This document shows, piece by piece, positions 839 through 64,000 of a DNA stretch of 64,000 nt. The DNA comes from Raillietiella orientalis. Lineage: Eukaryota. Both the position numbers and the translations under genes were made by a program. Every line of letters starts with the position of its first letter. Position 1 is the first letter of the stretch. Location: assembly GCA_036172245.1 (NCBI GenBank), contig JAYWIR010000033.1, forward strand, positions 124,001 through 188,000, in the 5' to 3' direction. Under the pieces are notes generated by a model. That model worked only from the letters and a program-made list of their open reading frames with translations, searched no databases and was not told the origin of the DNA.

Positions 839-840
839 GT

Positions 841-12628: not shown

Positions 12629-12634
12629 ATTACT

Positions 12635-15611: not shown

Positions 15612-15622
15612 ACTTTATTTCA

Positions 15623-21900: not shown

Positions 21901-23021
21901 CATCCGGAGAAGGAGCCGACTCTTACAGCACACAGTTTGGAAAGCGAACCACTACTGCGACGTAGTGGACGCGTTTTCCCGTCAGCAGGACGAGATTTCC
22001 TTCTCGACACGGAGCGCACAAGTCCTTCAGGCTGATGAGTCCATAAAATCCATTCTCAGGCATTCCTAAGCCGGCCTTTTATTTCCACTATCTGGCGTGC
22101 GGACAACAAGCGGAAAGCGGAAGACTTGCGCACATACTTCATCCACACCGCGGCTTGTTTCGGCGACAGAAGCGTGCCATGCTCGATTCTGACGATCGCC
22201 GACGCTGTCTTCTGGTGGCAGCTGGACAACTTCTCTTCCGGGGAATAGTCCCTCTACGGTGCACCGAGCTACTTAAGATACTGAGACGCAAGCATGGAAA
22301 AGTGGATCCATTTCAGATATCCCGCCCACGCGATACCGAATGCAACCATGGACGGGTTCGCTTTGTTCGTCCTGTTCACCTCCATTGCAGTCCCTCAGCT
22401 CAATGGCTCGAAGAAATCTTCGTTCCCTGACAACGGTGTTGACATGGAGAGCACCAAAGGAAAATTGTCCGCGGATGCTGACACGGACGGTGCGATTCAG
22501 CATCATATCTCAAGCGAGCTAGGTTTCTTCAGCGGCTGAGCTACAATTCGTGGAAGGTGCTGAAGAGCAAGTGGTTCAGGCTGGCGACCAGCCGTATGCC
22601 GTCGCGCACCTCCACAGTGTTTACCTTTGGTCCTCTGAACGAAATGTTGGTTATTGCGCTGTCCCGGCAGATGTGCAGAAAGTGGCTTACGATTTCGTAA
22701 AGCGCTTGCGTACCGCAAGATGCAGAAGAGACTGCTGGTGGATGCAGTCGAATAAATGCGGATGCAAGGTTGGTAGCCTAGGTTTGTGTAGAGCGCCTGG
22801 GACGAGATTGAACCGCCTTCATCAGTACGATACAGACATATGCTATTTCCGGGCGAGGTATGGAGGCGAACCTGTTCCAAGCTTCCATCTGGCTAGACCT
22901 CTTAGAAGAAATAAAATTGGTGCTCAGGCAGAATTCTAGTGCGTGCGCCGGCAAATGCTCAGATGTCCAAATCAAGGAGGGCGCCCATGAAAGCACCGTC
23001 GACTTGCGGAAAGCAATCGAA
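18330..23021 (+). repeat. Segmental duplicate of 1-~4680 (offset ~18,329 bp)
   Basis: Identical or near-identical ORF translations (e.g. 915/19250, 2431/20768, 2531/20868) and the same rRNA-retroelement junction. Confidence 0.97.
18990..19172 (-). rRNA. rrnS: NUMT 12S rRNA 3' part, copy 2
   Basis: Near-identical to 660-838. Confidence 0.85.
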
Positions 23022-25720
23022 ATTCAACCGGATTCCGATGGTGCGTTTATTGCTAAATGAACTTTTACCAAGACGTGCAGTGGCTGGACAAATGCTCCCG
23101 CCACGCACAAAAAAACACAGAGCTTTTCAAGTCACAGGTTTGCAGGACGGAACGGTCCACCGAGGCCGAAGTGGAAGGGTGAAAAAACAAAATACCAAGC
23201 AAAAAGAATCAAAGAGTGGGAGGGAACGGGAAAGGATCACTTTTGCTGCAGGGGCTGCATCGTTCCTCTCAGGAAGCTGGCAAGCTCTTTTTGCATTTGA
23301 AGATATAGATTTTGCCATCGTGACGCTTCTCTCAAGAATTGGTAGGCGCACTGGTTGGCATCCTGATCGCTTGGCACTCCCGCCGCCGTGCTCCATGCGG
23401 CGACGTTCCCACGGAGGCAGAACGAGGCTGCAATCGAGGACTCTGGCCGAGGAGCGTCGGCAACGAAAAAGGCTTTCAGAGAGTCCCTGTGGTTGCCGCA
23501 GGGGATACCGACGGTCGCGGCAAAGCGGAACCAAAGGGACCCAAGAGAAACACGATCCACTAGGAGGTCTGGGATGGAGTCCCGTACCCGCTCCTTACAC
23601 AATTGGGGTCCATTGCACCCCAGTTCCAGTGTTGTCTGCGTGTGTTGCAGGGGGGTCTAAAATGCTTCAACAGGAGCGCCGAATGCAGCCTTTAGAAGGA
23701 ATGGGTGGAACTGTTCATAAGAAACAAGAGCCACTTCAGATGTTCATTCGGTACATCGAGCAGCGCTCCCCAGCGCAGAAGTAGATAGGGAAGTGTACTC
23801 TCGGTCGCAGCATAAGTTAACTTTCCCGTCTTCCACTCTTTCTGCTGCTTGTCCTTCCCGGTGATTTTTATTCTAACCTCCCACTTTTCCGCAACATCGC
23901 TGTCCTGATCTTCAAGTAGAAAGTCCAGCGCAGCAGTGAGGGGGGCTCTTCCATCCCACGCACTCCTCTTAGGATGCAATAAGATCTCAAGGAGCGTGCA
24001 ACTTCTGTATCCCATAAACAGGAACTTTCGTTCCTGTTGAGAGAGTTGCATGCCGAACTGTCCCTATGTTCGAACGGTTTTCCGCAACCAGGCACTACCG
24101 TACATGTGGCGACAGGTGAACCAACTCTTTACTTGTCAGCGCAGCCTCCCTCCAGAGCTCGAGTCCGCATCGGTAGACGCGGCGACGGGACGCAAGAAAG
24201 GACGCGAGTTCCGTCTTTCCGGTAGCTTGCTGAAGTTGGAGACGTGCAGGGACGCACCAGCAGGTGCACCACAACTCCGGAACAAGTGCCAACATTCGAA
24301 ATTAGAGCAGAAGCTTTAGGCGCTATTATGTGAAGAGGTTGAGAGCACCTTGCCGACGCGTAGCACACAAGTCCTTTATGCCGAGTAGGGCCCACTTGTT
24401 GCCCCAAAGGGCGTTACGGAGGAAGAACTTCGTTCGCTTTTTTATCCACTTTGTGGGGGGGTAAACAAGAAGCAGGGTTCGGAGTAAAGAAGCCGCGAAC
24501 GTGTTCCAAACCGCGGTACGTTCAGGCAGGAGAAATCTGCCGCCTCGGCGCGTTCCGATCGCCGTCTCTACATTCTGGAGGCAGCCGGAGCACGCTTCCG
24601 CAGGGGAGTAGTACCTTAACGTCACACCAAGGTACTTGAAGTACCTCACCGTGGGGATCCCTAAACGGACCCAGTCCTGGAGCCCTGCCTACGCCCCACC
24701 AACTGGAATCACGGACGACTTCGCCCTGTTCACCGTAAGTCCGGTTTCCGATCCAGCAGGTCGAGGATCTTCTTGAATACAAAGCCCGTTTGGACATAGG
24801 GAACAGCAGCAGAAGGTCGTCCTCGCAAGCTTACACCGCGATCGTAGCGCCGCAGTCGTGCGGCAGGTGCGCCAGAGTTTCCCTGTACGCTCTAAGTACC
24901 ACCTCAATGTAGGTACTGAAGAGCAACTTGCTCTGGCTCTCTCCCTTTCGTTTGCCACGTTGTAGTGGCACGCCGCGCACGGTCTGCCCGCTGGAAGTAA
25001 GAGTGATTAGCGCGTAGCTCCAGCTGGAGCGCTGATAGACTAGTAATGAGGCCGTGAAGCTAAAGGGTTCCAAAAGCTCCAGCAGGAGATTCTGGTCGAC
25101 GCTTTCGGATGCTTTACGCAAGTCGAAAGTGACCGTAAGAGCTCCCTTCATCACCCAACCATGCGTCTAATGGCTGAGGGACTTTGCGGAATTTCCGTTG
25201 CGCATCAAATCCCTTACCTGTTTGAGCTCTATCGAGGTGAAAGCGTGGAACAGGTTCGCCTCCCTACTTCGCACGAGAACAGCATACGTCTGTTCTGGGC
25301 TAATGAAGGGGTTTGCAGCTCGTAACAAGCCCTGAACCCAAACCTTAGCTATCAACTTCGCATCCGCATTCACAATTGTGATAGGACGCAAGTTGTTCAT
25401 GCTCCTCAGATCTCCTACCTTAGGGAAAAGCCGCACCTTTGCCGAACGAAACGAGGCGCAGCCTGACTTGCGTATCAGCAAGGTGAGTTGATGTACCAGG
25501 TAGTTAGCTCAACCGCGAAAGTTTGATGAAACTCCGCGGACAGGCCGTCCTCTCCTGCACCCTTGTGTTTCTAGAGATTTCCGATGACCGTGATGATCTC
25601 GTTCATCGTAAAAAACTCGTCGAGGGACTTTTTGTCCTCCTCCCCTATCTCATGAGCGCCTTTCGGATGCAAGAGTCGTGAGACATTGTGCTCGGGAGGC
25701 GCCCTGGCTTACAGGGGGGC
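23022..25720 (-). mobile_element. L1/Tx1-like 3' half (RT, zinc finger, 3' end), antisense
   Basis: KVRLFPKVGDLRSMNNLRPITIVNADAKLIAKVW, FDLRKASESVDQ, YFKYLGV; AATAAACG on the minus strand at 23044-23051. Confidence 0.9.
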
Positions 25721-25723
25721 GTT

Positions 25724-27510
25724 CAGACGTGTTTTTTCTGCGCTTTTGCCGCATAAGATTCCGAAGCCTTTTTTTAGCATGTTTGTGAGTGGTACATCGC
25801 CGGTGTCCCATGGCAGGAATGCCTATGGGCACTGCGATGGAGATTGGAGAGGGAGAAACTTGTTCCTCTCCCCAACCCACGCAGGTGGAATAAACCACCC
25901 TCACGGAAGAGAGGGCAACCGTCCCCTTGAAAAAGGGGGCAACCGCCCTTCTGAAAAACGGTGCAACCGCCCCCTTGGATTAGAACGCAAACACCCTCCT
26001 GGAATAGAGTGAAACCGCCTTCTTGGAAAAGGGGACAACTGCGTTTGCGGATCCGTGTTCTCCAAACACGAAAACCTAGAGCTCCGTGGCTGCAGCACCA
26101 TCTCCTGCAGCCTTAGCAAAACAACACGCTTACTTGGGAACAAGATAGGTTCCGAACTTGATGTACAAGGTAGGAAATCTGTTCGTTGGAAATGACGCTT
26201 GCCATTCCCAGAGGAGACTAAAGCGGCTACAAGTTAAAGAGTAGGACCTGGAAGGTCTGTCAGTTCTCAGTGGGGGCCTACGGGTGGCCCTTACTTGCAG
26301 AGATGCAAGCCTGTCTTAAGGCCTGCTGAATACTCTCCTCATGTTGGAAGGCAAGAAGTTCTTTCCAGTAACCGAGGATCGCTCTGTATTAGCGCATCAC
26401 TCATGAGTAACCCTTTGCACGTCAAAAACCGGTGTGAAGGAGGAATTGAGTAAATTCAGAACGGAACACGGGGTATGGACCAAGCCGAAGTCTTCAAAAG
26501 TTACGGAAGTTTGTTCAGTAGCACGGCTTCTGCGGGTGTGGCCGTTCACGAGAACGGTGTGCTACCTTATAAACTCGGCGTCGGCAACGATACCGTCGAC
26601 GTCTGCTACGTGGGTTAGTCCAAGAACTGTGGACACTGCGATGCCACAAGACACCTTAATAAACGATGTCCCACATCAATGGTTTCCACTGCGGCGAAAA
26701 AGGCAACCTGCGGAAGATGTGTCCAAAAGGCGAATCCCCGTTTCCCCCTGCATTGAAAAAAGCCAAGGGGAATCACGCGGGGCGAATGGAAAATCCTAAG
26801 GAGGCGCCCGAAAGGCGGAACCCACAGCCAGAGCCCGAACCCGTTCAGCAAATGCCGGTCGAGGATAATCCCGACGAGGCTGGAGAGAGCGAAGGCTAGC
26901 GTAAGGCGGACCGCATAAGTAAGAATATCAAGAAAACCTTAGGCACGACAGCGGAACACACGATATCTCCATTAAATAGGAGACAACGCCGCGCATTGCT
27001 TCGCGAATGTTCGGTTTCCTTGGAGTGCGTGGAGGTCCCCGAGACCGAAACCGGAGGAGATATACTTCGCCTCGTTGACGGCGAAGTCGCGACCGCGGAA
27101 GGCAAACCCTCTGCGCAAACAGAGGAAGAACAGCGCGACGCGCTCGCCGCAATCGAGGAGGCCGCGTTCCAAAAGGCGGCGGAAGAGCTCGCAGCCGAAA
27201 TCGCCGACCGTTAGAACCGAGCGAGTATGGCCTTACAAAGGCCAGCAGCGAGTAACGCACCTTCGATAGGTGACCACGACCCGTATGGGGAAGTGCGTAA
27301 TCCTCCGCGGAGGCGCCTTCGAAGAAGATTTGACGGAAGTCCAACAAACCGAAGAGGCGCATTACGACGAAGAAGGAGGGGACACACCGGTAACCGAGAG
27401 GGAAGCCGACACCGTGGGAACGGAGGAAGGAATTTCCCCACTATCCGCTACCGAGCAGCTTGCCAACCCTATGGAGGAGGGGGAGCAGGTAAGTGATTGC
27501 TTCTCCCTTC
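25724..27510 (+). mobile_element. L1/Tx1-like 5' UTR and ORF1 pseudogene
   Basis: GACGTGTTTT start, LMYKVGNLF, degenerate zinc knuckles at ~26620-26720, EEAAFQKAAEELA. Confidence 0.85.
25914..26045 (+). repeat. Degenerate 24-bp tandem repeat (5-6 units) in the ORF1 N-terminus
   Basis: Units like GGCAACCGCCCCCTTGAAAAAGGG. Homologous arrays at ~33950-34080, 41955-42140 (minus) and 51362-51490. Confidence 0.8.
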
Positions 27511-27520
27511 CATCGGTGGG

Positions 27521-29220
27521 CCGACGTGTGTTTCCTTCGTTCCCGAGTGAGTCGACCGGAAGCGGTTTCTTCCGTGTTGTTTTTGTGTGGAACGTAGTTG
27601 GTGTCGGATAGCAACCTTCCCTGAGAACTCCACGATGGAAGTAGGTGTGGAAGGGGCTTGTCCATCCCCACAGCCTACTGGATCAGGGAAATCCGCCCCG
27701 GAGTGATCCCCGGCGACTCCGAGCACGTGAAGCGTTATGGTGGATGCGTTTAGCGCAACAGCCATGGCGGAGATGGCCGACTACCGGGCAGCTGGGTACA
27801 AGCCTAGCTTAGTATACCGTGTAGGCAATCTTTTTGATGGGCGAACTGCACGCAGCTTTACGAAGGCGCTCCAGAACACCAACGTACTAGAAAAGGATCT
27901 TAATGGTCTATCTATGCTTCACGGGGGTCAGCTCGTCGAGGTTGTTTGTAAGGACATTATTTTCGCGCAAAATCTGATCACCACCCCGCAGAACATGGAT
28001 GAGCGCATGATCCTGCCAGTGACGATGGACCGCTCCGTAGTGGTCCATCTGAATGTTATCACCAGCCGCATGACGTGGTCTGCGGTTGGTGAAGAACTGC
28101 AGAAGTTCGGTGAGGTAGACGCGCTGTGACCAAAGGCCACTATCTTCGAGGGCTACAATAGCCTTTTCGTGGGGCAGCCTGCCGCGCAGGTGTCTGTGAC
28201 CGAGGGTGGAGCGCCACCTTACAAGTTGGGGGTCTGCCAGGAAGCGGTAAACATCTGGTACGTGGGGAAACGCCGCTACCGTGGGAACTGTAGCACAGTA
28301 GGTCACCTCCGCAAAAGGTGCCTAAATAAACAGTGCCACCTGCGTGGGAATCAAAGCCTCGATCGGCGAGTGTGCCCCAAGCGCCCCAGCCCGGTGCAAG
28401 CTGCCGCAAAAAGGCGCAGGAGAAAAAACGAAAGAGGTCGCAAGGCCTATAGTTGAAAGTGGCCGGCAGAAGCTGTTAGCACCTCAACCTCCGAAGCAAA
28501 ACTCGGAGGAACAACCTTCCTAAGTAGTGGGAGGGGCAGACGTTTGGCAGGATATAGAAGCCCGTTCGGAAAAAAGGTTCTCAACCAGGAAGCCGCAAGA
28601 GCGGATAAAAAGCCGGCCGGTAAGGAGACAAAACCTGGGCCGCGCTCCGAGGCTTAGCGGGAGTGCACGATGGCACTCGAATGCATTGCTTTTCCCGAGG
28701 TTGCCACACTGGGCGACGAGCTTCTCCTCGCCGTTTCCGCAGCGCCCGAAGCTTGCGACGGCGAACCCTCTGTACAAACAGAGGGTGAGCCGAATGACGC
28801 GCGAGCCGAAAGCGAGGACGTTGCATTCGCGCAGGCGGCGGAGCTCGCGGCCACACTGGTTGAGCGTGAGGACCTCTCTTGCAAGGTGTTGCGTAGGCCA
28901 ACTACGGCAAAGAAAACCTTCACAGGTTAGTTAGACCTTGGGGCAAGTACACATCCTTCACCTCGGAGTCACCCTTTAGAAAGTCGGGACGCAAGTTACA
29001 GAATCCCAGGAGGTGCCTCCCCTCCTCCAGCGAGGAGGAGAAGCAGGAATGTAGCGGAAGCGTGAGAATCCCTTGGAGGGAAGTCCCGCGCTCTGAATCC
29101 GTCGAACCGGCCCTCCCCATGGACGGCGGTGAGTTGGGGGGTTAAGTCCTGTCTGCAGTAGCCAAGCATAAACAGCCCGCCCTCATGGAGGAAGGCCAAC
29201 AGGTGTCGTACGTCTGCTAC
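27521..29220 (+). mobile_element. Second ORF1 pseudogene (different subfamily) with 5' UTR
   Basis: GACGTGTGTTT start, GYKPSLVYRVGNLF, IWYVGKRRYRGNCSTVGHLRKRC, EDVAFAQAAELA. Confidence 0.85.
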
Positions 29221-29239
29221 GTACACCTGTTTTTTGGGG

Positions 29240-31370
29240 GAATCGCCGCCTCCACCCCTTCACGGAGGATAGATCCATCCTGATCCACCTCCTCGGGATC
29301 ACCTTCCGGATGGCCAAAGAGGCTGTCCGAAAGGAATTATTAAAATTTGGCACCGTGAACGCGCTCTGGAAAAAGCCTACTCCGTTTTGGGAGTATGATC
29401 TTCCCAATTGCTGTCTGGCTTGCGCGCGAATCACGGTGCGCGAAACTTGCTCCTTACCAAACTAGCTGGAGGTCAACGACGAGCCCGTTGACATTTAGTG
29501 TGTTGGAAAGCCGCATTTTTGCGGGCATTGCAGCACTTGAGGTCACCTGAAAAAAAGATACCCCTACTTGCAGTGCAAGCAATGCCAGCAACCCAGGCAC
29601 ACTTTTCCGGTGTGCCCTGCAAATCAAGTCGGCGTCACGTCCACACGGAATGCTAACCACCGCGGCCAAAAAAAAGAGTTCTGGCAGCGTGAGAGCGAGC
29701 CGTCGCTAAAGAACCAGCTATCGTGCCCCAGGTAGAAGTCCGCTCCGAGATCCCGGAAAACTTGGACAAGGTCAAGGAGAACGGCCAGGAACATGGAGGG
29801 CAGGTAGTAGAATCCAAGCCGCAGAAAAACCTCAAGGAACCAAGAAAAAATTTCGCAAAACGCAGCGAGAATCTGCCGAGTCACGAAAAGAGCAAACGCT
29901 GCTCTGTGGTCATCAAGCGCATTCCTGCGGTCGAGCAGAGTGGCGAAATTGAACTCTTCGCTGCCCACTCTCAGCCCTTCGGCAAATTAATGCCGGTGGA
30001 TACCGAACTGGCGGTATTGTTTGTCGTCTAGCTCCTGCTCGACGACGTCGCCTTTGAGCGAGCGGCGGTGGAGCTCTTTGCGTCCTTGCAGCGTCTTCCC
30101 AAATCCGCGAAAAAGGCCTTAAGGCGTCCGACCTCGATCAAGAAGTCGGAGATTCTCAACTCTGACGCAGAGGCGGAAAACACAGACTGCGGCCTCGCGG
30201 CCTCGCGCCCGAGGGCTAGTGGCACGAAGAAGGCTTCCCGCAAAATGATCCCGTCCATTGAAAATGGTGACAATCAAGGGAAGCGAGCGTGCGAAGAGAG
30301 TGGTGAACTCCGGGGACTCTCCTCCAGAGGTAATCCCACGCTGGGACGCCAAAAGAAGGGAAAAGGTAGAGTCTGTGCCCCAGGTGATTCAACTGCCTGA
30401 GATGGCCGCGGAATCCTTACTCGTCTCTCATACCTGTTCCTTGACAGGAGCTGCAACGCGACGTTTGCAGCCTTAATGGCTGAAATCGCCTCTTGCCGCC
30501 TTCTGCGAATTGCCTGTTGCAACGTCAACGGGCTAAGCGACAACGGAAAGAGACGAGAGGTGGCCGCCACCCTGGCTTCGTTTGACCTGGTGCTACTGCA
30601 GGAGATCCACGCGATCTCCGCAGACCAAGCAGCGAAGATCTAGAGTATCTCGGGTGCACGGCTGCAGTATCGCTGCGGCGCCGTTAAATATTCCGGTGTC
30701 GCGTTCGCGCTTCTGCCAGCTGTCGAGGCCACGTCAAAGGGCGTACGGTTCGATAGTGCCGGTCGAGTCGGGCAGTTGACCATAAGGCGGTCCGACTCCA
30801 TCGATCTGGTCATTACCAAGTGTACGCCCTAAGCGACAGCGACGCGTTAAGGGCAAAGGCAAGGAGAGACTTCTTCCTTACCCTGAGGAACGAATATCTG
30901 AACGAAGCGGGAGAGCGCAAAGCGCACCGAATCGCAGGTGACTCCAACCTTCACCTGCTGTCCGGTGTGTCCGACACTCTTCGGAACCGTGTGAACGAGC
31001 TGTGCGCAGAGATGCACACGTGCAACTTGTCCACGGTAGATCCGGAAATAACCGACAGCATACATCTCGTGTTTCTTTACCAGCACCCATGCTCACGCCT
31101 AAGCAGGCGGGGCAAGTTACGTTCGGAACTGTCGGACCATGACCGGATCGTACTGGATTTGCGCCTACGCGATAGGGAACCCCGTCATCTGCGTGGCGAT
31201 TACCATCTGCGAGGGGGACTGCCTGAAAATTCCGGTAGCCGCGGAACATCTCCGCGGGTTTCTACGAGGTTACAGCTTGCAGACCCTTCAGGACTGGGAC
31301 CAATTCAAGCGCTCGGTCCGGAAGTTTTTGGACGAGATCTCTATGATCCTCCTATCTGCCGGGTCAGGCG
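29240..31370 (+). mobile_element. 5'-truncated ORF1 plus APE endonuclease pseudogene
   Basis: Two CCHC knuckles at ~29520-29620. ORF2 ATG at 30476: LRIACCNVNG..DLVLLQEIH, AGDSN, LSDH. Confidence 0.9.
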
Positions 31371-33758
31371 TGGCCACCCGGGTACGACCGGGGCGTTTAT
31401 TGAACAAAACTCTCTATGAAACGTGGAATAAGGCCTCATTGCGTCCTCAGACACGGGACGTGTCGGGACACCGGGAATAAGCCCGTCGTGGCACTCCCCG
31501 ACAGCGAAATGAGATGGGGGGAATACCAAAAAAGAAATTGAAGAGATAAACAAACAAAAAGCGTTTGGAGAGCAGGGAAGGGATCACCGGACGCTGTGAA
31601 AAGGGTCCTTTGGTCGAAGGAAGCCCTCGAAGTCTGTATGCATAGTTCCCAGATGGAATTATCAAGCAGCTCTTCGCAAGAGGCGTACTGCATGCTGGAT
31701 GACTTCCCTCTCGTTCCAATCTTCATTTTTGCTGCTGGCGTCGCTCCAAGCCGCCACGATGCCTCGAACGCAGCAAATAGCCGCGAGGGCTGTTGATGGC
31801 TGCAGAGCGTACCGTACAAAGAGAAGGCGGAAAACGTCTCTGGTGCAATGCACATTGGGAGCCCGAGGCTCGTCTTGAACCGTTGCTAAAGTGGTCGGAG
31901 AGCATAAGAATTGAATGTAAGTTGGAAGAGCAATTCCCGCTCTTCGCACCTGGCACACGCAGGATCCACAGCCTTTTTCGTCTAGTGAAAGCGGCGCGCG
32001 TTGCAGGGTAGACCCCAATCCAACAGGAGCTACGCCGACTGTTGCCACTTGAGAGGCAGGATCCTGGATTCCTTCATAACTGAGGGCCACTTGAGCTCCT
32101 CCCTATAAGCCACTTGAGCTTATCCCTGGGGATGCGAGCAGCACGCCCCTTCTCAATATTCCACGCACCTGGACGCTCGGGGTCGTGGCGTCCGATAGTT
32201 TACCCATGGTCCAGCCGCACAACTTCTTCTCTCCTCCCTAGAAGCAGCAGCAGACTTGCCACATTGGCGTGCGGCCGCTGTGAAGAGCCCTCCTTAGTAA
32301 GCGCATCGCCGTAGCAAGGCAGGTTGTATCGTTCCACGTGCTTGCAGCGCGATTCTCCAAGAGATCCCGCAGCGTGCAGCGGACGTAGGGGCTGCATCGA
32401 AAACGCTTCCAGCCTTCGTGGGTTCTCCGGTTTAACACAGTCCAGGTGCCGATGTTCTCCTCCAACGAGGAGGAGGAGTTGGCACGGCTGCAAATCATAC
32501 AGCGGTTCTCAATGGCCAGGGTTGCCACGCGCCTGTGCAGTAGGCTGGATCTTCTTATTTTTCGACCTGGGCACAGAAGAAAGCACGCGAGTCCTTCGCA
32601 ACATGACACACGGCTCTCTAGAAGGCGGGCTGGAATGCACCAAGAAGCGATGCACATTTTCGCTGCGATGGCGAGGTTCCGCCATGGCAGCTGTTTCTCC
32701 ACGCGTTCCAGCGTCGGGAGGCCAAGACCGCCGTCCCGACGCGGATCGCAGAAGCCCTTTAGAGGGACTCGGGAACTTCCCTTGCCCATATGGGCTATGC
32801 GGAGGAGGTCATCCGTCCTCTTCTTAATCTCTAATGGAGCGAGGCAAACAAAAAGCAAGCGGCGCAGGATGGGAGCCTCAATTGCGTTCCGAACCGCTGC
32901 CCGTTCCGGCAAGTGAAACTTGCCTTCCAGAAACGGGCCGAACGCTGTCTCTACTTTTCGGAGGCAGCTAAACCACGCTTCCGCCGGGGAATAGTCATTA
33001 AACGGCACACCAAAGTACTTCGACCACCTGGCCGTGGGGATCCCCAAAGACAACCAGTCCTGCTGCACTGCCCACGCTGCACCTAATGGAACCACCGACG
33101 ACTTCGCCCTGTTAACCTGCAGTCCGGTCCCGCGGCAAAGCAGATCGAAGAAGTCCTCGACTGCCGTTGCCGGAGTGGACATGGGTAACATGAGCAGAAG
33201 ATCGTCAGCGTACGCTGCTATGGCGGGCGTGTCGGGGCACGAGCAAGGGAAGGGAGCCAAGGACACCCTGTACGCTCTCGGCACTAAATAAAAGTAGGTG
33301 CTGAAGTGCACGGGGATGAGACTATCTCCCTGCCATATGCCACGTCGCAAGGGCACACCATACAATTTCTGACTGCTCAAATGGATTGAGATTATCTCAT
33401 TGCGCCAGCAAGAGCACAGGTAGGAAATCAGGGAGGGTGGGAAGCCCACGCGACCCAGGAGCTCCAAGAAGAGTTGCTGGTCCACACAGTCGAATGCCGT
33501 GTGGAGATCTACTGCGAGCGCAAGGCCGCTTGTCCGCCCGAGCATTCCTTCCCAGCCCGGCTGACTGTCCTAATGTGGGGTTGCCGGTTTTCCCTTTCCC
33601 TTCCTTTTTTCTACTCTGCAGGTGCATCCATGTGCACGCCAAGAAAAGGTGGGCATCCATACTTCTCCCGGGAACAGAATAAGTCTCTTCCCGGCTATTT
33701 ATGGATTCTGCCACCTGCTTCAGACGCGAAGCCCATAGCCTTGCTGGCAACTTGGCGG
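31371..33758 (-). mobile_element. L1/Tx1-like 3' half, antisense; best-preserved RT (ORF 32238..33545)
   Basis: VDLHTAFDCVDQ, RRGIWQGDSL, AYADDLLL, GLQVNRAKS, KYFGVP, GGLGLP, and a CARCEE zinc finger; AATAAACG at 31394-31401. Confidence 0.95.
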
Positions 33759-33760
33759 GC

Positions 33761-38515: not shown

Positions 38516-38524
38516 AAAAAATTC

Positions 38525-40210: not shown

Positions 40211-40249
40211 CGGTTTTTAAACTGAGAAAGTGGCAGTGCGGCGTCCGCC

Positions 40250-42335: not shown

Positions 42336-42337
42336 AC

Positions 42338-43535: not shown

Positions 43536-43536
43536 C

Positions 43537-53900: not shown

Positions 53901-54953
53901 GAAAGTGGCCGGCAGAAGCTGTTAGCACCTCAACCTCCGAAGCAAAACTCGGAGGAACAACCTTCCTAAGTAGTGGGAGGGGCAGACGTTTGGCAGGATA
54001 TAGAAGCCCGTTCGGAAAAAAGGTTCTCAACCAGGAAGACGCAAGAGCGGATAAAAAGCCGGCCGGTAAGGAGACAAAACCTGGGCCGCGCTCCAAGGCT
54101 TAGCGGGAGTGCACGATGGCACTCGAATGCATTGCTTTTCCCGAGGTTGCTACCCGGGACGACGAGCCTCTCCTCGCCGTTCCCGCCGTGCTCAAGGCTT
54201 GCGACGGTGAAGTCTCTGTGCAAACAGAGGGTGAGCCAAGGAACCCGCAAGCCGGAAGCGAGGACGATGTATTGGCGCTGGCCGCGAAGCTCGCGGCCAC
54301 GCTGGTTGAGCGTGAGAACATCTCTCGCAAAACCTTGCGAAGGCCGGCTTCGTCAAAGAAGGCCTTTACAAATGAGTCAGAGCTGGGGGCAAGATGCACA
54401 TCCTCCTCTTCGAAATCACTCTTCAGAAATGCGCGACGGAAGTCCCAGAAGCTGAGGAGGTTCCTACTTTCCTCCAGCAAGGAGGAGAAGCAGGAAGGTA
54501 GCGGAAGAGTGGGAATCCCGGAGAGGGGATTCCCACGCACGGAAGTCGTCGTGCTGGCCACTTCCATGAAGGAGAGTGAGTTAGGGGGTAAGGTCCTCCC
54601 TGCAGTCGCCATGCATGAACAGCACGCCCTCTTGGAGGAGGGCCAACAGGTGCCCAACGTCTGCTAGGTCACCTGGTTTTTTGGGGAATCGCCGGCTCCA
54701 CCCCATCACGGAGGATACATCCATCGTGATGCACCACCGCGGAATCACTTTCCGGATGGACAAAAAGGCTGTCCGAAAGAAATTATTAAAATTTGGCACC
54801 GTGAAAGCGCGGTGAAAAAAGCCGACTCCGTTTTGGGAGTATGATCTTCCCAATCGCGGTCAGGCTTCCGCGGGAATCACGGTGCGCGAGATTTGCTCCT
54901 TACCAAACAAGCTGGAAGTCAACGGCGAGCCCGTTGACATTTGGTATGTTGGT
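44392..54953 (+). repeat. Segmental duplicate of ~18159-29506
   Basis: Colinear paralogous ORFs (22939/48361, 25686/51134, 27737/53183, 28169/53615) and shared internal junctions. Confidence 0.97.
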
Positions 54954-54954
54954 T

Positions 54955-57117
54955 TTTCATTCGGGTGAGCCGGGTCTTTTATTATGAAAATTTTTTGAGA
55001 TGACAAAAAATTCCATAACAAAGTCTGAATTTTTTCACCAAAAATTTCATTTCCTGTTCAGGATGTCTAGAAGTTCATAAACGTTTAGTGGCACTTGTCC
55101 TTACCGACCCAAAGGCCGATAAGGTCCTTCACTGGCGCCGGGACGGGAAAAATAAAGGAAACAAAAACAAAAAAAGAGAAACGTCTGCAGGGCAATGTTT
55201 TGGGAGAGGGGGAGGGAGGGAGGGAATAACGGTGCGCCGTGAGCAGGCCTTTGCATCCGGTTTCGGATGGGAACAAGTGCCGGCAAATGTTTTTGAAGTC
55301 GGCGCCAACGGCACGCTTTCTCCATGGAGATCGCTGCCCAGTGGATGGCATTCCGACTGGTCCTTCCTCTTCTAGACGCGGTCCACTTCTCCAGGTTACC
55401 GCGTATGCAGCAGAGCACTGCTACGCTCCCGGAGGCTGGCAAGCCGTCTCGCGTCAGGAGGCGTCTGAATAAATTTTTCAGGTCACCCTCCGGAATGTTA
55501 AGGATCGTCGAGAGTCTGTCCTACATTTCGCGGAAGGCAACACACTCCAGAATCAAGTGAGGGAAGGTCTCCCTTTCCCCGCACTCTGCACAACTAGCAT
55601 CCACATTTCCCGTTGTCCAGGGAAACAGGCGTGCTCTGCTTAAAAGTCCCCAGTGGAGCAGAAGCAACGCCGTCTCCTGCCACTGCAGGGGAAGGGTGCC
55701 GCTGTCCCATGACGCTGAGGGCCACTTCACCTCCTCCGGAGGTATACCGAGCAGCGCGCCCAAGCGTAAAAGTCTGTTCGGCGGGACACTCGGGGTACTA
55801 GCGTCCGCTAGTTCCCTCGGCGTTCACGCCTTCAGTGATTTTTTCCTGCCTCCGATGAGGCAGGACACTTCTCACGATGCCTGTTGGTGACTGTCCCGAA
55901 GTTCCCTGAGGGATTGCAGCACTGGAGCAAGGGGGGTGAAGGAAGCCCACAGAAGTTTCCCTGGGTTGGAAACGATCTCCTGCAGTGGCTGACCAGCGTA
56001 CCTGCCTCTACGGAGCCAGGAGAAGTGCTCATCACTGGAGCCGTTGATTTTAGCCCATGCGGAAACGGACTCCTGAAGCCAGGTAGTCCAGTCCGCTAAG
56101 ATGCAGGAGATCCAAGGGTTGTCTCTCATCAGGAAAACCAAGTCCCGCAGCTGATAACCACAATAGTTCAGGCTGCGTTTGTTAACTACCAGGATTGAAG
56201 TCAATCCGAAGCAGCCGGTTGCCCTGTGAGCAAGGAGTCTTGCCGGTGCACACCAGGGTGCTGTCCAAAACTTTGCCACAAGGGCAAGTTTTCTAAATTG
56301 GAGCTGTTGCTCCATGCGCTCCAACGTCAGGAGACCAAATCCACCGTCCCTGAATAAAGCGGACAAGTCTTTGAGCCGGAGGCGGGACCTCCGGTAGCCC
56401 CAGAGGGCTTTCCGTATAAGGGCCCTAGTCCGTGTCCTAATTTAGTAAGGGGTAGGGCACACAAAATGTAGGGGGCGAAGAAGGGGGGCCGCGAAAGCGT
56501 TCCATACCGTGGCCCGTTCCTGCAAGTGAAACTAACCGTCCCGGAACGGGTTGATCGCCAGCTCCACTTTTTGTAGACGGTCGGACCAGGCTTCTGCAGA
56601 GCAGAAGTCCCCCAACGAACGCCAAGGTACTTGATATACCTGCCCTTGGGGATCCTTAACCGGATCCAGTCCGACCGTCCGGCCCTCGTCGAGTCGGTGA
56701 GAAGCAACGACGACTTCGTCCTGTTTACCTGGAGGCCTGTCCCACGGTATAGCAACTCGTGGAAATCCTCGAGCGCCGATGCCGGGGTGGACCCGGGAAG
56801 CAGGAGCAGAAGATCGTCGGCATAGGCCGACACGGCAGACGTGCCAAGACACGAGCTCGGCAGAGTTGCCAAAGTCTCCCTGTATGCTCTCAGCACCAAC
56901 TCAAAGTAGATGCTGAAGAGCAGGGGGCTGAGGCTGTCACCCTGCTGGATGCCACGACGAACCAGCACGCCGAACACGTGCCGGCGGCTGAAAATGATAT
57001 TGATGAGCGCGAAGCGCCAGCAGGAGCGCAGGTAGGCCAGGAAGACGGCCGGAAATCCCAAGCGTTCCAGGAGCTCCAGATGGAGCTCCTGGTCGACGAA
57101 GTCGAAAGCTTTACGTC
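54955..57117 (-). mobile_element. L1/Tx1-like 3' half, antisense (divergent subfamily)
   Basis: RKAFDFVDQ, RRGIQQGDSLSPLLF, AYADDLLL, GGFGLLTL, CAECGERETFPHLILEC; AATAAA at 54978-54983. Confidence 0.95.
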
Positions 57118-57119
57118 GG

Positions 57120-59815
57120 CTAGAGCGGACGTGTTTCCTCGATGCTCCTCATGCCAGGAACCGTCCCTAGGTGTAGGATTCGTGTGTGGTGGTGGTCGAT
57201 CAGGCAGCAGTGCCTGACACGACCACCAGTGCGTGTCAGAGGGCGGTGGCAACGTCACCTCCTGAAGAAATGGAGTGCCAGGTGGCGGCAGCAACGTCGC
57301 TTCTAGAGAAGGTGGAGTGCCAGGAGGCGGCGGCAACGTCGCCTTCAATGGCGAAGGAGGTGGGGGCGTCCGCCCCCACAAAACCGGTCCCCGCTGCAGC
57401 GCGGGCGTGGAGCGCCGTCGTGTCGGCGCCATCGCCGGCAGCTGCGGCGGAATTATCTGCCTATGTGGAAGAGGGGTATAACCCATCACTATTCTACAAG
57501 GTAGGAAATTTGTATACTTCTGAGAGTGCGCGCGCCTTTTCGAAGGGGATGCGCGCTCTCGATGTTAAATAGGAGGAGCTCTGCGCTATGACCATTCGTA
57601 GCGGGGGGCAGTACGTAGAGGTGATCTGTAAACATGCAGATCTGGCCCAACGTCTGCTTAAAACCCCCGTGGTAATGGAAACACGCAGGCCTATTCCCGT
57701 TAGGGCGCACCACAGTATGGTGGTCCACCTTTTAGGAGTTACCGCGCGGATGCGGAAAGAACAGTTACGCGCCGCGTTGGGAAAAGAAGGCACGGTGCAT
57801 GCAGTATGGACCAAGCCTAGTCCTTTCGAGGACTATACCACACTTCAGTGCAGCCTCACGGCTGCCCGTGTAACCGTTCGGGAGGGATCTACCCTTCCTC
57901 ACAAACTGGTGGTCGGCGGAGAAAGCGTCGACCTCTGGTACGTGGGGAAGCCCAAATACTGTGGCTTCTGCAACACGTCGGGACACCTCAAAAGAAGGTG
58001 CCCCAACGTACAGTGCCTGGTATGCGGGACAATGAGCCACACGAGGGAAGTGTGTCCACAATCTGCTGTGCGCGTGGTTTCCGCGAGCAACCTAAAAAAA
58101 CGCGCGGGGCTGCTACATAAAAAACTGGCAGCGATGGCTGCCGCTCAAGCTGTGCCACCCACTTTCGTGGTCCAAGCCTCATTCGACACCCCGGCAGCGA
58201 ATGCCGAAAAGATCGACAAAAGCGGTGAGGTGTCGGAATGGCAAGAAGCCACAGCGAAAAAAAAAAAAAAGTCGAAGAAAGAACGACGAATTGAAAAAAA
58301 GCTCGCCTACCAAAATAAAAAACAGCAGGTTAGCGAGAATTGAAAAGAATGCCGCGTCGTCGTGAAACGCGTCCTTGCCGAACGCCGGAAGGTAGAAATC
58401 GCTGCTACCGACGAGCAACCCACTGTTGAAAATGTGAACAGCGTGAGGAGCGAACCGGCGGAAGCGTCCGTCATCGAGACCGTGATCGAGGACGCCGCCT
58501 TCGAGCGTGCGGCGGAGGAGCTGGCTCCATCGTTGCAGCCAGACCCCTCCAAGGCTGGCAAAAAGGCAGTGAGGCGTCCGGCCTCCACCGAGAAGTCGGT
58601 AACTTCCGACCTTGAAGCGCAGGCCGGAAACCAAGTTTCCATCTCCGCGGCACCCCGCCGGAAGGCTGGAAGGAAGTATAGCAAACCCTGTAAAGCACCT
58701 CTCCAGGTCGAAGGCGTGGAGATGACTTCCGACTGCGAGGGTGCAATGAGCGTGGGAGAATCCCGGGAATCGTCACCCGAGAGACCACCACGCACAGACA
58801 CGGAGGAGATCGAGGGGGCTGAAGCCGAAAAGGTACCCAAGGTGCCTGACGAGGCTAAAACCCAAATGGTCATCTCACCCGCCTCGCAAGAGGCAAGTTC
58901 CCATACACCGTCATCTTCCCGGCATTACTGCCGGGAATCTCCTCCCGCCGTCGTTTGCGCATCGCCGTTTGGAACGTAAACGGGATGACAGACGCCGGCA
59001 GGAGACGGGACATGGCCGCCATTCTAGGATCGTTCGACCTTGTGCTGCTGCAGGAGATCCATGTGATCTCTGCAGAACAAGCGCAGGAGATCGAACGCAT
59101 CTACGGAGGGCGGCTGTGGTATCGGTGTGGAACATCGAGAAGTTGTGGTGTCGCCTACCTGCTTCGGCCCGCCATCGAGGCCGCCGCCCGTGGAGTTCGG
59201 TTCGACGATCACGGTCGTATCGGCCAGCTGACTCTCAGCTGGTCCGACTCGATCGACCTGATCCTTACGAACGTTTAGGCCCCGAGGGGAGCGGATCTGA
59301 CGAACAGGAGGGCCAGGAAAGAATTTTTCCTTGCCCTCCATCGCGACTGGTTGACCGAGGCAGGCGTGCAGAATGCCCATCTGGTTGCAGACGATTTTCA
59401 CGTTCGTCTGAAACCGGATGTGCAGAATCACGAGCGTGACCTGGTCAACGAGGTGTGCGCGGCGGTGCACACTTGTAATTTGTTGGCCAGTGTACCAGGG
59501 ATGGAGGACAACATCGATCATGTGTTCCTTGACGAGCACTTGTGCACTCGTGTGGGCAAGCGCTGCAAGTTGCCGTGCGAGTTGTCCGACCATCGACCAA
59601 TCGTGATTGAAATCCATCCACGCGAAAGGGGCCCCCCCTCGTCAGCGTGGCGTTTGCCAGGGGACTGGCTGAAGATCCCGGACGCGACGGAACATCTCCG
59701 CACGTTTATACGGAGCTTTAGGATGCAGACACTTCAGGATTTGGACCGCTTCAAACGGTCGGTCCAGGAGTTCTGCGACCAGTTCCCTCGGCACCGCCTA
59801 CCTTCGGGATTTGGG
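57120..59815 (+). mobile_element. 5' half: UTR, ORF1 (two CCHC knuckles) and APE
   Basis: GYNPSLFYKVGNL, YCGFCNTSGHLKRRCPNVQCLVCGTMSHTREVC, RIAVWNVNG..LLQEIH, DHVFL, SDHRP; in-frame stops. Confidence 0.95.
57243..57360 (+). repeat. 42-bp tandem repeat (about 3 units) in the ORF1 N-terminus
   Basis: ATSPPEEMECQVAA / ATSLLEKVECQEAA / ATSPSMAKE; the sibling copy at ~61905 has one unit. Confidence 0.8.
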
Positions 59816-61778
59816 GATATCACCCGGGTACGCCCGGGGCGTTTATTAATAAAATTTACATGCGTGGTACAAGGCCCTACCACGGCTGTAAACACAGGAC
59901 CTGTCGCGACACCGGGACGTAGCCCGGCGTGGCACTCCCCGACAGCGAAAGGGGATGAGGGGAAAAACAAAAAGAAAAATAAAGAAATAAAAAACAAGAA
60001 GAGTTTGGAGGGCAGGGTAAGGATCACTGGTCGCTGTGAGGAGGGCCCATCCTTCGAAAATGCCCTTGAGGTCTCTCCGCATATCTCCCAGCTGAGGCCA
60101 TCCGGCAGCTATCCGCAAGAAGCGTTGGGCATACGGGATGACATCCCTCGCCTGTGGACCCACTCCTTCGTTGTTGGCGTCGCTCCATGCCGCCACGATG
60201 CCACGGACGCAGCACAAGGCTGCGATGGCTGCGACTGGCTGCAGTGCGTCCTTCACGAAGAGAAGCCGAAGAACGTCTATGAGGGTTCTGCCCGTAGGGA
60301 GCCCGAGGTTCGTCCCGGACCGTTCCCAAAGGGGTCGGAGGGCAGCACAATCCGCAATAAGGTGGGGAAGCGACTCCCGCTCCCCACATCTGGCACACGG
60401 AGGATCCACAGCTCCCCTCGTCCAGTGAAAGCGGCGCGCGTTGCAGAATAGACCTCAGTGCAACAGGAGCAACGCCGACTCTTGCCACTTGAGAAGCAGG
60501 ATCCTGCATTCTTTCATCACCGGGGGCCACTTCAGCTCATCCCTGGGGATGACGAGCAGCTCGCCCCATCTTACTAATCCTCGCGGCTGGACGCTCGGGG
60601 CGAAGCGTCGGTTAGTTCTCCTGTTTTCTAGCCGCTAATTAACTTCTCGCGTCCCTCGATGCAGCAGGAGACTTGCCACCTTGGCATTCGGCTGCCCTGA
60701 AGTGCCCTCTTCAAGAAGGGCAACGCCGTAGCTAGGCAGTTCATTTCTGCCCACGTGCATCTTGCTGGACTCTCCAGGAGATTCCGCAGCGTGCAGCTGG
60801 CGTACGGGCTGCATCGGAGACGACTCCACGTTTTGTGGCTCCTCTGGTTAACCACTGCCCACGTTCCAATATTCTCCTCCAGCCAGGCGAAGGAGTTGAC
60901 GGGGCAGCAAACCATCCAGCTGTTCACCTTGGCCAATGTTGCCATGCGCCCGAGCAGTAGGCCGCATCTTCGCATCTTCCGGCCAGGGCTCAGAAGAGAA
61001 GACGCGAGTCCATCGCACCGGGGCACACGGCTGGCCAGGAGGTGGGCCGGAATGCACCAAGGGGTGCTCTGCATCTTCGCTTCGATGGCGAGGGTTCGCC
61101 ATTGCAAGTGCTTTTTCACGCGCTCCAGCGTCAGGAGGGCAAGGATGGGGGCCGCGGAGGCGTTCCAAACCGCGGCTTGTTCCGGAAAGTGAAACTTGCC
61201 TTCCAGGAACGGGCCGATCGCCGTCTCGACTTTTTGGAGGCAGCTGGACCACGCTTCCGCAGGGGAGTAGTCCCCCAACGGCACACCAAGGTACTTGAAG
61301 CACATCGCCGTAAGGATCCCTAGACGGACCCAGTCCTGCTATTCTGCCCACGCCGCACCTATTGGCACAACCGACGACTTCGCCCTGTTAACCTGCAGTC
61401 CGGTCCCGCGGCTGAGCAGATCGAAGAAGTCTCCGACCGCCTTTGCCGGGGTGGACATTGACAACAAGAGCAGAAGATCTTCGGCGTACGCTGCTACGGC
61501 GGGCGTGCCGGGGCACGAGATCGGCAATGGGGCCAAAGTCACCCTGTACGCTCTCAGCACCAACTCAAAGTGGGTGCTGAAGAGCAGGGGGCTGAGGATA
61601 TCTCCCTGCCTTATGCCCCGTTGCACCGGCACGCCATACACCTTGTGACCGCTGAAAGAGACGGTAATCATCGCATTCCGCCAGCAAGAGCGCAGGTAGG
61701 AAATCAGGGAGGGTGGAAAGCCCATGCGACCCAGGAGCGCCAAGAGGAGTTCCTGGTCTACACAGTCGAACGCCTTGT
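59816..61778 (-). mobile_element. L1/Tx1-like 3' half, antisense; relative of 31371-33500
   Basis: HKAFDCVDQ, RGIRQGDILSPLLF, AYAEDL, FKYLGVP, CARCGERESLPHLIADC; AATAAACG at 59840-59847. Confidence 0.95.
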
Positions 61779-61779
61779 G

Positions 61780-64000
61780 CGCTCTAAGGTGGACGTGTTT
61801 TCTCGGTGCTCCTCGTGCCAGAAAGTCTCCCCCAGTGCAAGCGTCGTGTGGTTCGGTGGTCGATCAGGCAGCGATGCCTGACGCGACCACGAGGAATGGC
61901 CAGGGGGAGGCGGCAACGTCGCCCCCAGAGGCGATGGAGATGGGGGCATCCGCCTCCACAGAATCAGTCCCCGCTGCAGCGCATGCGTGGAGCGCTGTTG
62001 TATCGGCGCCATCGCCTGCAGCCGCGGCGGAATTGTTGGCCTATGTGGAGGAGGGGTACAACCCCTCATTGTTCTACAAGGTAGGCAATTTATATTCTTA
62101 AGAGAGCGCGCGCGCCTCCTCGAAGGGCATGCGCGCTCTCGATGTGAAAGAGGAGGAGCTTAGCGCTATGACCATCCGCAGAGGAAGTCAGTACGTTGAG
62201 GTCATCTGCAGACATGCAGAGCTGGCCCAACGACTGCTTAAAACCCCCGTAGTGATGGGGACGCGCAGGCTTCTCTTCACTACGGCGGACCGCAGCATGG
62301 TGGTCCACCTGTTAGGCGTCACCGCGCGAATGCGCAATGAACATGTTCGCGCTGCTTTGAAACAGTTCGGAACGGTCCACGCGCAGTGGACTTAAGTTTG
62401 TCCCTTCGAGGACTACGCAAGGCTGCAACACGGCCTCACGGATGCGCGCGTGACCGTTCGGGAGGGCTGCACTCTTCCCCACAAACTGGTGGTCGAAGGC
62501 GAAACCGTCGACCTCTGGTATGTGGGGAAGCCGAAATACTGTGGCTTCTGCAAGACGTCGGGCCACCTCAAAAAGAGGTGTCCCAATGTGCAGTGCCAAG
62601 TATGCGGCACAATGGGCCACACGAGGGAGGTGTGCCCAAAAGCAGCAGTGCGGGTGGTTTCCAAGAGAAACCTTAAAAAACGCGCCCGGCCTCTGCAGAA
62701 AAGACTGGCGGCGAAAGCTGCCGCGAAGGCTGTGCCACCCGCTCCCAAGACCCAGGCCGCACCCGAGACCCCGACGACCAACGCCGAAACAGTCAAGGGA
62801 ACTAGGTGGAAGCCTGGGTGGCAGGTGGATACGGCCAAAAAATCAAAGAAGGAGAGGATCATGGAAAAGAAAATCGCCTAACAACAGAAGAAGAAAGAGC
62901 AGGGTAGCGCGATAATTAAAGAGTGCAGCGTCGATATCGAACGCGTTCTTGATGTTGCCGAACGCTGCCGGAAAGAACTCGCCGCTACCGACGACCTCCC
63001 CTCTGTTGACACAGTCAACAGCGAGGGGAGCAAGCCGGCGGCGGCGTCCGTCATAGACACCACCATCGATGACGTAGCCTTCGCGCGAGCCGCGGAGGAG
63101 CTGGCAGCCTCGTTGCAGCCAGAACCCTCCAGGGCTGGTAAGAAGGCCGTAAGGCGTCCGGCCTCTTCTCAGGATTCCCCCACTTCCGACCCCGAGGTGG
63201 AGGCCGGAAGCGCAGCCTCCGTTTCCACGGCACCGCGCAAGAAGGATGGACGTAAGTCCACAAAGCCAAGGAAGCTCGTCTCCCCCGTCAAAGGGGAAGA
63301 GATGGCTTCCGCAAGCGAGGGTGCCATCAGCGTTGGAAACTCTCGGGACCCGTCGCCCGAGAGACTCCCACGCGCGGACACGGAAGGGATGGAGAGGGTG
63401 GAGGCCGAACAGGTACCTCAGGTGCCTGAGAAGGCCGAAACCCCCATGGACATCCCGCCCGCCTCGCAAGAGGAGGGCTTCCCCACACCTTAATCTTCCC
63501 AGCAGTAATGCCGGGAATCTCCTCCCGCCGTCGTCTGCGCATCGCCGTTTGGAACATGAACGGCATGACAGACGCCGGCAGGAGACGAGACATGGCCGCC
63601 CTTTTGGAGTCCTACGACCTTGCGCTGCTGCAGGAGATCCACGTGATCTCTGCAGAACAAGCGCAAGAGTTCGAACGGATCTCCGGAGGGCGGCTATGGT
63701 ACAGGTGTGGGAGAGCGAAAAGTTGCGGTGTTGCCTACCTACTTCGGCCAGCCGTCGAGGAAGCGGCTCGGGACGTGCGGTTCGACGATCACGCTCGTGT
63801 CGGCCAGCTGACTCTCAGGTGGTCCGACTCGATCGATCTGATCGTCACGAACGTGTACGCACCGAGCGGCAAGGACCTGATGAACAGCAGGGCTAGGAAA
63901 AAGTTTTTCCTTGCCCTCCGGCGAGACTGGCTGACCGAAGCAGGCGTGCGGAATGCCCATCTGGTTGCAGGCGATTTCAACGTTCGCCTCAAGCCAGATG
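61780..64000 (+). mobile_element. 5' half: UTR, ORF1 and APE; runs off the window end
   Basis: YCGFCKTSGHLKKRCPNVQCQVCGTMGHTREVC, ORF2 ATG at 63508, WNMNG, LLQEIH, NVYAP, AGDFN. Confidence 0.95.

Follow-up and report, generated by a model that had tools for sequence, protein, structure and literature searches.

The 64,000-nucleotide stretch of Raillietiella orientalis DNA analysed here (assembly GCA_036172245.1, contig JAYWIR010000033.1, positions 124,001 to 188,000 of the forward strand; hereafter the window) carries a cluster of nested copies of one long interspersed element (LINE) family, which occupies 3.6-7 kb and 22-64 kb. Self-comparison reveals two layers of repeats, namely segmental blocks and many 65-83%-identical pieces of this one retroelement family. 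Within the cluster, the termini of some copies meet internal positions of others. In total, 15 non-duplicate terminus-to-internal junctions lead to four sites of a 5.6-kb LINE that encodes an apurinic/apyrimidinic endonuclease (APE) and a reverse transcriptase (RT), and all of them are antisense. These junctions probably record independent antisense insertions, specific in site and orientation, that the family made into its own sequence through target-primed reverse transcription (TPRT) and that were afterwards shuffled through duplication, gene conversion and deletion.

LINE copies and their recurrent junctions

All copies and junctions were taken from this one window and placed on a common element coordinate (el 1-5574), which was derived from a scaffold of three window pieces with three-frame tblastn and a profile hidden Markov model (nhmmer). 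Pfam recognizes an APE domain (Exo_endo_phos) at 63430-63999 (E 7.3e-11) and 35412-35873 (E 9.1e-6), which in the element lies upstream of an RT domain (RVT_1) matched on the minus strand at 56327-57148 (E 5e-13) and 32238-33569 (E 5.5e-8). Matches to zf-CCHC in open reading frame 1 (ORF1; E 0.016) and to zf-RVT (E 0.24) fall short of the Pfam cut-offs, and the copies are decayed. As expected of an APE-type LINE, the inserted copies (guests) all have complete 3' ends, 5' truncation is variable (g2, l and e), and target-site duplications (TSDs) occur. The guests have in common a 5' terminus resembling GGACGTGTTTT (6 of 6 aligned ends) and a 3' terminus consisting of AATAAACG plus about 21-24 nt (8/8 ends), and poly(A) is absent from all eight of these 3' ends.

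Among 1.8 billion cluster representatives, the nearest protein is P0004, a 619-aa metagenome protein with 56% identity and an RVT_1 match of its own (E 4.7e-24). The only close relatives in that search are P0004 and P0005, both of them metagenome proteins. A protein search matched 243 proteins, and the full-length relatives, which come from tick, lizard, frog and plants, present an APE+RVT_1+zf-RVT architecture. A metagenome scan with the RT alignment returned 15 loci at 22-30% identity (one short piece at 61%), too distant for comparison of junction sites. Judged by its sequence, the family is an L1/Tx1-type LINE whose nearest full-length proteins are only 26-30% identical to it. It is an old, now dead LINE with ORF1, an APE endonuclease, a reverse transcriptase and a defined 3' end.

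Inspection of the junctions supports the recurrence claimed in an earlier sequence-only reading of this DNA. All 12 junctions listed there exist, with coordinates right within 3 nt (copies are lettered as in Table 1). At the site called APE-end, three guest 3' junctions (31370, 36272 and 59815) fall on the identical position, el 2699. At DAKLL, the 3' junctions at 36555 and 39491 share the host end el 3249, and the 5' junction at 33757/33758 has its host start at el 3238. KAFD holds a 3' junction at 23021/48443 (el 3493) and 5' junctions at 57116/57117 and 61780/61781 (el 3477 and 3476). At SLYA, the 5' junctions at 25722/51170 and 43537 begin at the same host nucleotide, which the 5' end of n also abuts, and three SLYA 5' junctions (c, n and o) start there. 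The overlap strings that had been quoted for KAFD and DAKLL are likewise present. The pairs 23021/48443 and 25720/51170 are one event each, copied by a 91%-identical segmental duplication. Five junctions of the same kind come in addition to these 12: 42324 and 42337 (SLYA 5' and 3', with a 13-nt TSD), 54952 (the 3' end of A in el 831) and, outside the range of the earlier reading, 4409/6778, a complete KAFD insertion. The target positions on the element are el 831, el 2699 (APE-end), el 2891-2903 (SLYA), el 3238-3249 (DAKLL) and el 3477-3493 (KAFD). With duplicates counted once (n = 15), 22 of 105 junction pairs lie no more than 20 nt apart in the same orientation, where 100,000 uniform simulations gave a mean of 0.39 pairs and a maximum of 7.

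Two insertions can be seen in place. Guest g2 sits between both halves of its host h0 with a TSD of 6-8 nt, (A)RTCCAAT, at 4403-4410 and 6777-6784. On either side of guest o stands a 13-nt repeat, ACGCTTCCACTAC on the left and (A)CGCTCCCTCTAC on the right, with 11 of 13 positions alike, so SLYA has a 3' junction too. The earlier reading had looked to intact young insertions with TSDs as support for targeting; insertions with TSDs are there, but all copies are dead. Reciprocal junctions overlap by 12-13 nt at DAKLL and by 15-17 nt at KAFD. The host sense strand runs up to the site, where the antisense of the complete guest 3' end takes over, and past the guest 5' end the host restarts 6-17 nt upstream. 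This geometry matches target-primed reverse transcription, from which we infer TPRT.

The choice of site differs between guest lineages. Lineage I guests (f, C and h) have their 3' end at APE-end in all three cases and lineage III guests (b and g2) at KAFD in both, while the three lineage II guests are found at DAKLL (m and j) and SLYA (o). The orphan A has its 3' end at el 831. That site use depends on lineage suggests that it stems from the element itself and not merely from the DNA of the site. The two lineage II sites share TAN^GCYAAGG, reading CTCTAC^GCCAAGG at SLYA (in p) and TTGCTA^GCTAAGG at DAKLL. APE-end reads TTTTGGG^AAC, el 831 reads TGTTGG^AAA and KAFD reads GAAA^GCGTCGACCAG, which gives a set of three site motifs: TAN^GCYAAGG, TTGG^AA and GAAA^GCGTCGACC. 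The sequence-only reading had seen no consensus among four sites and took this to weaken targeting. That no single consensus covers all sites holds true, but two sites of one lineage do share a motif, and because different lineages use different sites, the absence of a consensus for all of them is no argument against targeting. As sole determinant, microhomology of guest 3' ends with host sites was rejected, given that GTTGC at DAKLL is kept in both host and guest with no overlap consumed.

From 22.7 kb the copies form a chain that reads g2'(+), b(-), c(+), d(+), e(+), f(-), g(+), h(-), i(+), j(-), k(+), l(+), m+n(-), a 13-nt remnant, o(-) and p(+), followed by non-element DNA. Past the duplicated part the chain runs e'(+) to el 831, A(-), B(+), C(-) and D(+). 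Copies k, g and i may be one old element.

Table 1. LINE copies of the nested cluster, with window positions and strand
Copy	Positions	Strand	Element extent, junctions and basis
h0, left half of old host	3637..4409	-	el 4269->3487; ends at KAFD; nhmmer and alignment
g2, 5'-truncated lineage III guest	4410..6778	+	el 3228->3' end; complete antisense insertion in h0 at KAFD
h0, right half	6779..6960 (outer end approximate)	-	resumes at KAFD motif (..VVVDMRESLD); alignment, translation
g2', paralogue of g2 (75% identical)	22753..23021	+	cut at KAFD (el 3493) by b; unit 3 copy 48161-48443
b, lineage III guest	23022..25722	-	3' end->el 2893; 3' junction KAFD; cut at SLYA by c; duplicate b' 48444-51170
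c, guest with intact 5' end at SLYA of b	25723..27515	+	internally deleted (5' 1.6 kb), relative of n; duplicate 51171-52966
d, copy with intact 5' end	27516..29042	+	joined to c in same orientation
e, host	29210..31370	+	el 534->2699; cut at APE-end; uninterrupted at el 831 (29506/29507)
f, lineage I guest	31371..33757	-	3' end->el 3238; 3' junction APE-end; cut at DAKLL by g 5' end; uninterrupted at KAFD
g, intact 5' end at DAKLL of f	33758..36272	+	el 1-2699; cut at APE-end by h
h, 124-nt 3' end of lineage I guest	36273..36396	-	at APE-end
i, host piece	36397..36555	+	el 3095->3249; ends at DAKLL
j, 90-nt 3' end of lineage II guest	36556..36646	-	at DAKLL
k, 3' part	36647..38515	+	el 3848->3' end
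l, host	38521..39491	+	el 2278->3249; uninterrupted at APE-end and SLYA; cut at DAKLL; 80% identical to B
m+n, internally deleted lineage II guest (3' 0.73 kb + 5' about 1.7 kb)	39492..42324	-	3' junction DAKLL of l; 5' end at SLYA nucleotide of other host
left TSD copy for o	42325..42337	+	ACGCTTCCACTAC; 13-nt host remnant at SLYA
o, lineage II guest	42338..43537	-	5' about 40 nt + el 4359->3' end; complete antisense insertion at SLYA
p, host	43538..43890	+	el 2891->about 3215; begins with right TSD copy CGCTCCCTCTAC
e', paralogue of e (88.6% identical)	54652..54952	+	cut at el 831 by A 3' end; filled site
A, guest in e'	54953..57116	-	3' end->el 3478; cut at KAFD by B 5' end
B, intact 5' end at KAFD of A	57117..59815	+	el 1-2699; cut at APE-end by C
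C, lineage I guest	59816..61781	-	3' end->el 3477; cut at KAFD by D 5' end
D, intact 5' end at KAFD of C	61782..64000	+	from el 1; runs off window; carries APE domain

Several copies display features of their own. Three internally deleted variants retain both termini (25723-27515, 39492-42324 and 42338-43537). Copies c and m+n keep about 1.6-1.7 kb of the 5' part, m+n also about 0.7 kb of the 3' part, and o keeps about 40 nt of the 5' end with 1.2 kb of the 3' end; identity between c and n is 77-79%. These variants suggest that a non-autonomous derivative arose and was in turn mobilised. A 42-nt unit is repeated 2.4 times at 57242-57342, near the 5' end of B, and degenerate repeats in mid-n (40217-40543), CCCCCATGGA..GGAGGAGCAGGT, resemble it. 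Copy k, which is without a close relative in the window, has a (GTTTT)n-like T-rich microsatellite (38320-38372) inside its 3' untranslated region. The 5' truncation point of g2 (el 3228; 4410, and also 22753 and 48175) is just 10-20 nt upstream of DAKLL, perhaps by coincidence, or perhaps because reverse transcription can also stop at this site.

Independence and mechanism of the insertions

A single event would leave the host and guest halves of a junction equally diverged. Comparison of junctions of one class reveals instead that host identity is below guest identity in 7 of 7 comparisons (Fisher p 0.017 to 1e-38; Table 2), with the same pattern in separate pairwise alignment, and the events are therefore independent.

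Table 2. Identity of host and guest halves between junctions of the same class
Class	Junctions compared	Host identity	Guest identity	p
APE-end	e/f vs B/C	e-B 0.594 (n=2130)	f-C 0.783 (n=1908)	1.5e-38
APE-end	e/f vs g/h	e-g 0.533	f-h 0.829	9e-11
APE-end	g/h vs B/C	g-B 0.547	h-C 0.781	6e-7
DAKLL	i/j vs l/m	i-l 0.669	j-m 0.814	0.017
KAFD 5' junctions	A/B vs C/D	A-C 0.604	B-D 0.785	2e-36
KAFD 3' junctions	h0/g2 vs g2'/b	h0-g2 0.567	g2-b 0.675	3e-7
SLYA	b/c vs p/n	b-p 0.625	c-n 0.771	1e-7

Copies with an empty site bear on the same question. B, filled at APE-end, is closer to the empty l (0.80) than to the filled e (0.66) and g (0.62), and C, filled at KAFD, is closer to the empty f (0.78) than to the filled A (0.60). 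The filled host l is likewise nearer to the empty-site copy b (0.77) than to its fellow filled host i (0.67). In maximum-likelihood trees the hosts B, D and l group together (100/100) with e and g outside, and the guests form the groups (f,C) at 99/99, (m,o) at 100/100 and (g2,(b,b')) at 100/99. One site can be seen in both states: e and e' are 88.6% identical (265/299) as far as the 3' terminus of A, to the nucleotide, and 45% identical beyond that point, where e is uninterrupted, which makes them a filled/empty pair of segmental duplicates. KAFD is similarly empty in g2 and filled in its paralogue g2', and since b lies inside g2' and g2' inside h0', two separate events took place at KAFD. 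We rejected the idea that g2 and g2' are themselves independent guests. About 75-85% similarity crosses the h0/g2 junction and both are truncated at one and the same point, which makes them old paralogues; patches of 95-100% elsewhere are probably gene conversion.

The sequence-only reading had left two options, preferential antisense targeting of relatives or amplification and shuffling of a few old nested insertions, and had proposed separate host and guest trees to tell them apart. That comparison is incongruent in all seven cases, with filled hosts grouped with empty-site copies in the trees. Together with the TSDs and the filled/empty pair it favours targeting, and leaves amplification true only of the duplicated junction pairs and of later rearrangement. 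The 91% segmental duplication is real, the block at 1-4.6 kb is present in three copies, patches of 100% identity suggest gene conversion, and similarity crosses junctions (30470-32726 with 58922-61143, 71%; 56473-57275 with 61137-61939, 74%), all as expected if one old insertion per junction class had been amplified as a composite and then shuffled, with recurrence reflecting descent. We nevertheless consider this unlikely, because hosts are more diverged than guests throughout, empty-site copies nest within filled-host groups, one KAFD insertion (b in g2') lies nested within another (g2 in h0) so that a single event cannot account for both, and the three SLYA 5' junctions have different guests and orientations.

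A similarly low probability attaches to fragile or structure-prone hot spots, such as nicks on the displaced sense strand of R-loops or replication pause sites, that would act without a sequence-specific endonuclease. Such hot spots would fit the lack of a consensus uniting the four or five sites as a whole, the use of the same sites as 3' and 5' junction points and the 5' truncation of g2 only about 10-20 nt from DAKLL, and an R-loop model would also give antisense-only orientation. A lineage-blind hot spot does not, however, predict that site use differs between guest lineages, and nucleotide-precise junctions with regular short TSDs and a motif common to the sites of one lineage also speak against it. 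Less probable still is an artefact, be it assembly chimeras or twin priming or template switching within single insertions. The region is highly repetitive, with stretches identical between units, and L1 twin priming is a familiar source of inverted pieces. The same junction types nonetheless recur between partners 20-45% diverged, which is not expected of a collapsed or chimeric assembly, the junctions join a complete 3' or 5' terminus with an interior position of another lineage instead of two points inside a single RNA, and TSDs surround whole guests.

Under independent antisense targeting, new copies would use TPRT to enter resident copies of their own family at short sequence-defined sites. 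The endonuclease of the element would always nick the host sense strand as the primer strand, leaving the guest antisense, and a second nick 6-17 nt upstream would produce the TSD. Specificity would be set by this endonuclease, perhaps with pairing between the target and the read-through 3' flank of the RNA, which may help site choice. Pairing of this kind is described for other target-specific LINEs. Many guests are full length, and each lineage has its own 3' target (I, APE-end; II, DAKLL or SLYA; III, KAFD). Repeated insertion into the latest guest would then build Russian-doll chains such as A>B>C>D, and tandem segmental duplication, gene conversion and deletions would shuffle the cluster. 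A bolder and more tentative version is that endonuclease and 3'-end specificity evolved separately in the lineages, each toward a different short motif of the family's own sequence where it integrates antisense, with two such motifs in conserved coding motifs of the RT, which active relatives have little freedom to alter; we regard this as possible rather than probable. If it is true, copies of the family are both safe haven and victims in a homing, 'fratricidal' life style with target switching between lineages, and nested antisense clusters are an intrinsic product of the element, not of genome decay.

A number of observations weigh against the targeting account. Sense-to-sense or tandem joins occur at four junctions (about 27515, 29042-29210, 38520 and, between n and o, 42324-42338), the same-orientation join of c and d being an exception to the antisense rule. 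The truncated guests h and j adjoin host positions that do not recur, with host deletions of about 395 and 600 nt after them. Nor are the nests closed in the window: the rest of f would be expected past k and the right-hand halves of b, c and e before 43885, and none of these is there. A tandem-duplication breakpoint inside the nest would put the absent halves beyond the right end of the window. The flanks of m+n belong to two hosts and two sites (l at DAKLL, the p host at SLYA), with l-p identity only 0.66, so that later recombination is needed, and recombination between two lineage II guests would explain them. A 359-nt TSD for m+n, with l and p as one host, was rejected on the same value, as l-b reaches 0.77. 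Counts per junction class are small (2-5) and come from a single 64-kb window, no consensus spans all sites, and the shared motifs rest on two sites each. An intact ORF2 is absent from every copy in the window, where the longest stop-free frame has 443 aa. A 3' terminal hairpin was dropped as a recognition element, seven of eight folds being no more stable than shuffled sequence.

Surroundings of the cluster

The cluster is embedded in segmental repeats. An 8.5-kb duplication joins 21021-29506 to 46443-54952 (91.2%), and a larger repeat forms three tandem units at 1-4683, 18157-23021 and 44390-48443. Unit 1 has a background divergence of about 15-25% from units 2 and 3, while in certain 500-nt bins unit 1 matches unit 2 or unit 3 at 100% identity, suggestive of gene conversion or of a collapsed assembly. 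Upstream of the LINE cluster, the repeated block contains long stop-free frames on the plus strand at 1673-2860 (395 aa) and 45793-47085 (430 aa), and the open reading frames of the block at 1-3.6 kb yielded no Pfam family and no Atlas match.

A decayed insert of mitochondrial DNA lies at 12781-17196, with fragments of COX1, COX2 and COX3 in metazoan order on the plus strand and with broken frames. Its best solved relatives are mammalian COX1 chains, which by themselves would indicate an animal and probably a vertebrate genome. It sits between repeat block X (8914-9409) and block B' (from 18157), whereas in the next unit X' adjoins B'' directly (43885-44391 and from 44390). A tRNA match at 12634-12693 (minus strand) lies beside the insert, and a skewed low-GC stretch extends around it from about 10 to 18 kb.

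Significance and comparison with known systems

Target-specific LINEs serve as models for the choice of safe sites by retroelements and as starting points for site-directed gene insertion. A family that takes its own conserved coding motifs as targets, in fixed antisense and at a site differing by lineage, would be a natural series for change in APE-endonuclease specificity. It would also show one route by which dense inverted clusters of transposable elements build themselves, clusters that bear a resemblance to those at centromeres or small-RNA source loci. Since one decayed cluster is the basis, this value depends on a genome-wide census and on an intact relative.

Among well-known elements, the R1 and R2 LINEs of ribosomal DNA (rDNA) insert precisely and in fixed orientation into a conserved multicopy target and have many full-length copies, as does the LINE of the window. 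Their target, like the sites described here, lies in sequence that cannot easily change, the difference being that it is a host gene, 28S rDNA, and that R2 uses a restriction-like endonuclease. To our knowledge, R1 and R2 do not nest in their own copies. The 5' inversions that L1 generates by twin priming also place sense and antisense pieces of one family side by side. In twin priming, however, a single insertion links two interior points of the same RNA. In the window, the ends that meet fixed interior sites of one lineage are complete termini of a different one, and TSDs surround whole guests; the two segments at a junction come from different lineages and not from one RNA.

Closer in habit are Zepp and ZeppL, L1-type LINEs of green algae (Coccomyxa, Chlorella and Chlamydomonas) for which self-insertion and localized nested clusters are described (PMC3446292, PMC8226300). 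As in the window, insertion into existing copies of the element itself leads to nested clusters. The nesting of Zepp is described as tandem arrays mostly of 3' ends, whereas guests in the window are antisense, often full length and placed at fixed positions that follow the APE and fall either within the RT or immediately before it. Same-orientation 3'-end arrays of the Zepp type were not encountered in the window, where 16 of 16 site-specific junctions are antisense and only one junction (42324-42338) is tandem. The LINE of the window also differs in its 3' end without poly(A) and in its host, which is an animal, as the metazoan-type mitochondrial insert (COX1, COX2 and COX3) attests, and which speaks against a green-algal L1 lineage.

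The Tx1 clade offers the other close parallel. These animal APE-type LINEs occupy a fixed position and orientation in multicopy sequence, often with tandem or nested copies, and examples are Tx1L in Tx1D, Tx1-Mar in Mariner-N4_AMi and Keno in U2 genes, as well as Tx1-8_Crp and Tx1-4_AMi inserted in long terminal repeat retrotransposons (PMC4494074). The LINE of the window shares with them the APE-type machinery and a fixed site and orientation in a multicopy target, which in the Tx1 clade includes other transposons (PMC4494074), and its recurrent sites with fixed orientation amount to target-specific integration of the same kind. It differs from these elements in having its own sequence as target, with several alternative sites and lineage-dependent use. 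Full-text literature searches, judged by titles and abstracts, brought up no account of antisense insertion by a LINE at a set of fixed sites within itself, divided among its lineages. Self-nesting LINEs (Zepp) and transposon-targeting LINEs (Tx1) are thus both known, and antisense self-targeting at multiple sites, divided by lineage, is, as far as those titles and abstracts extend, a new variation on them.

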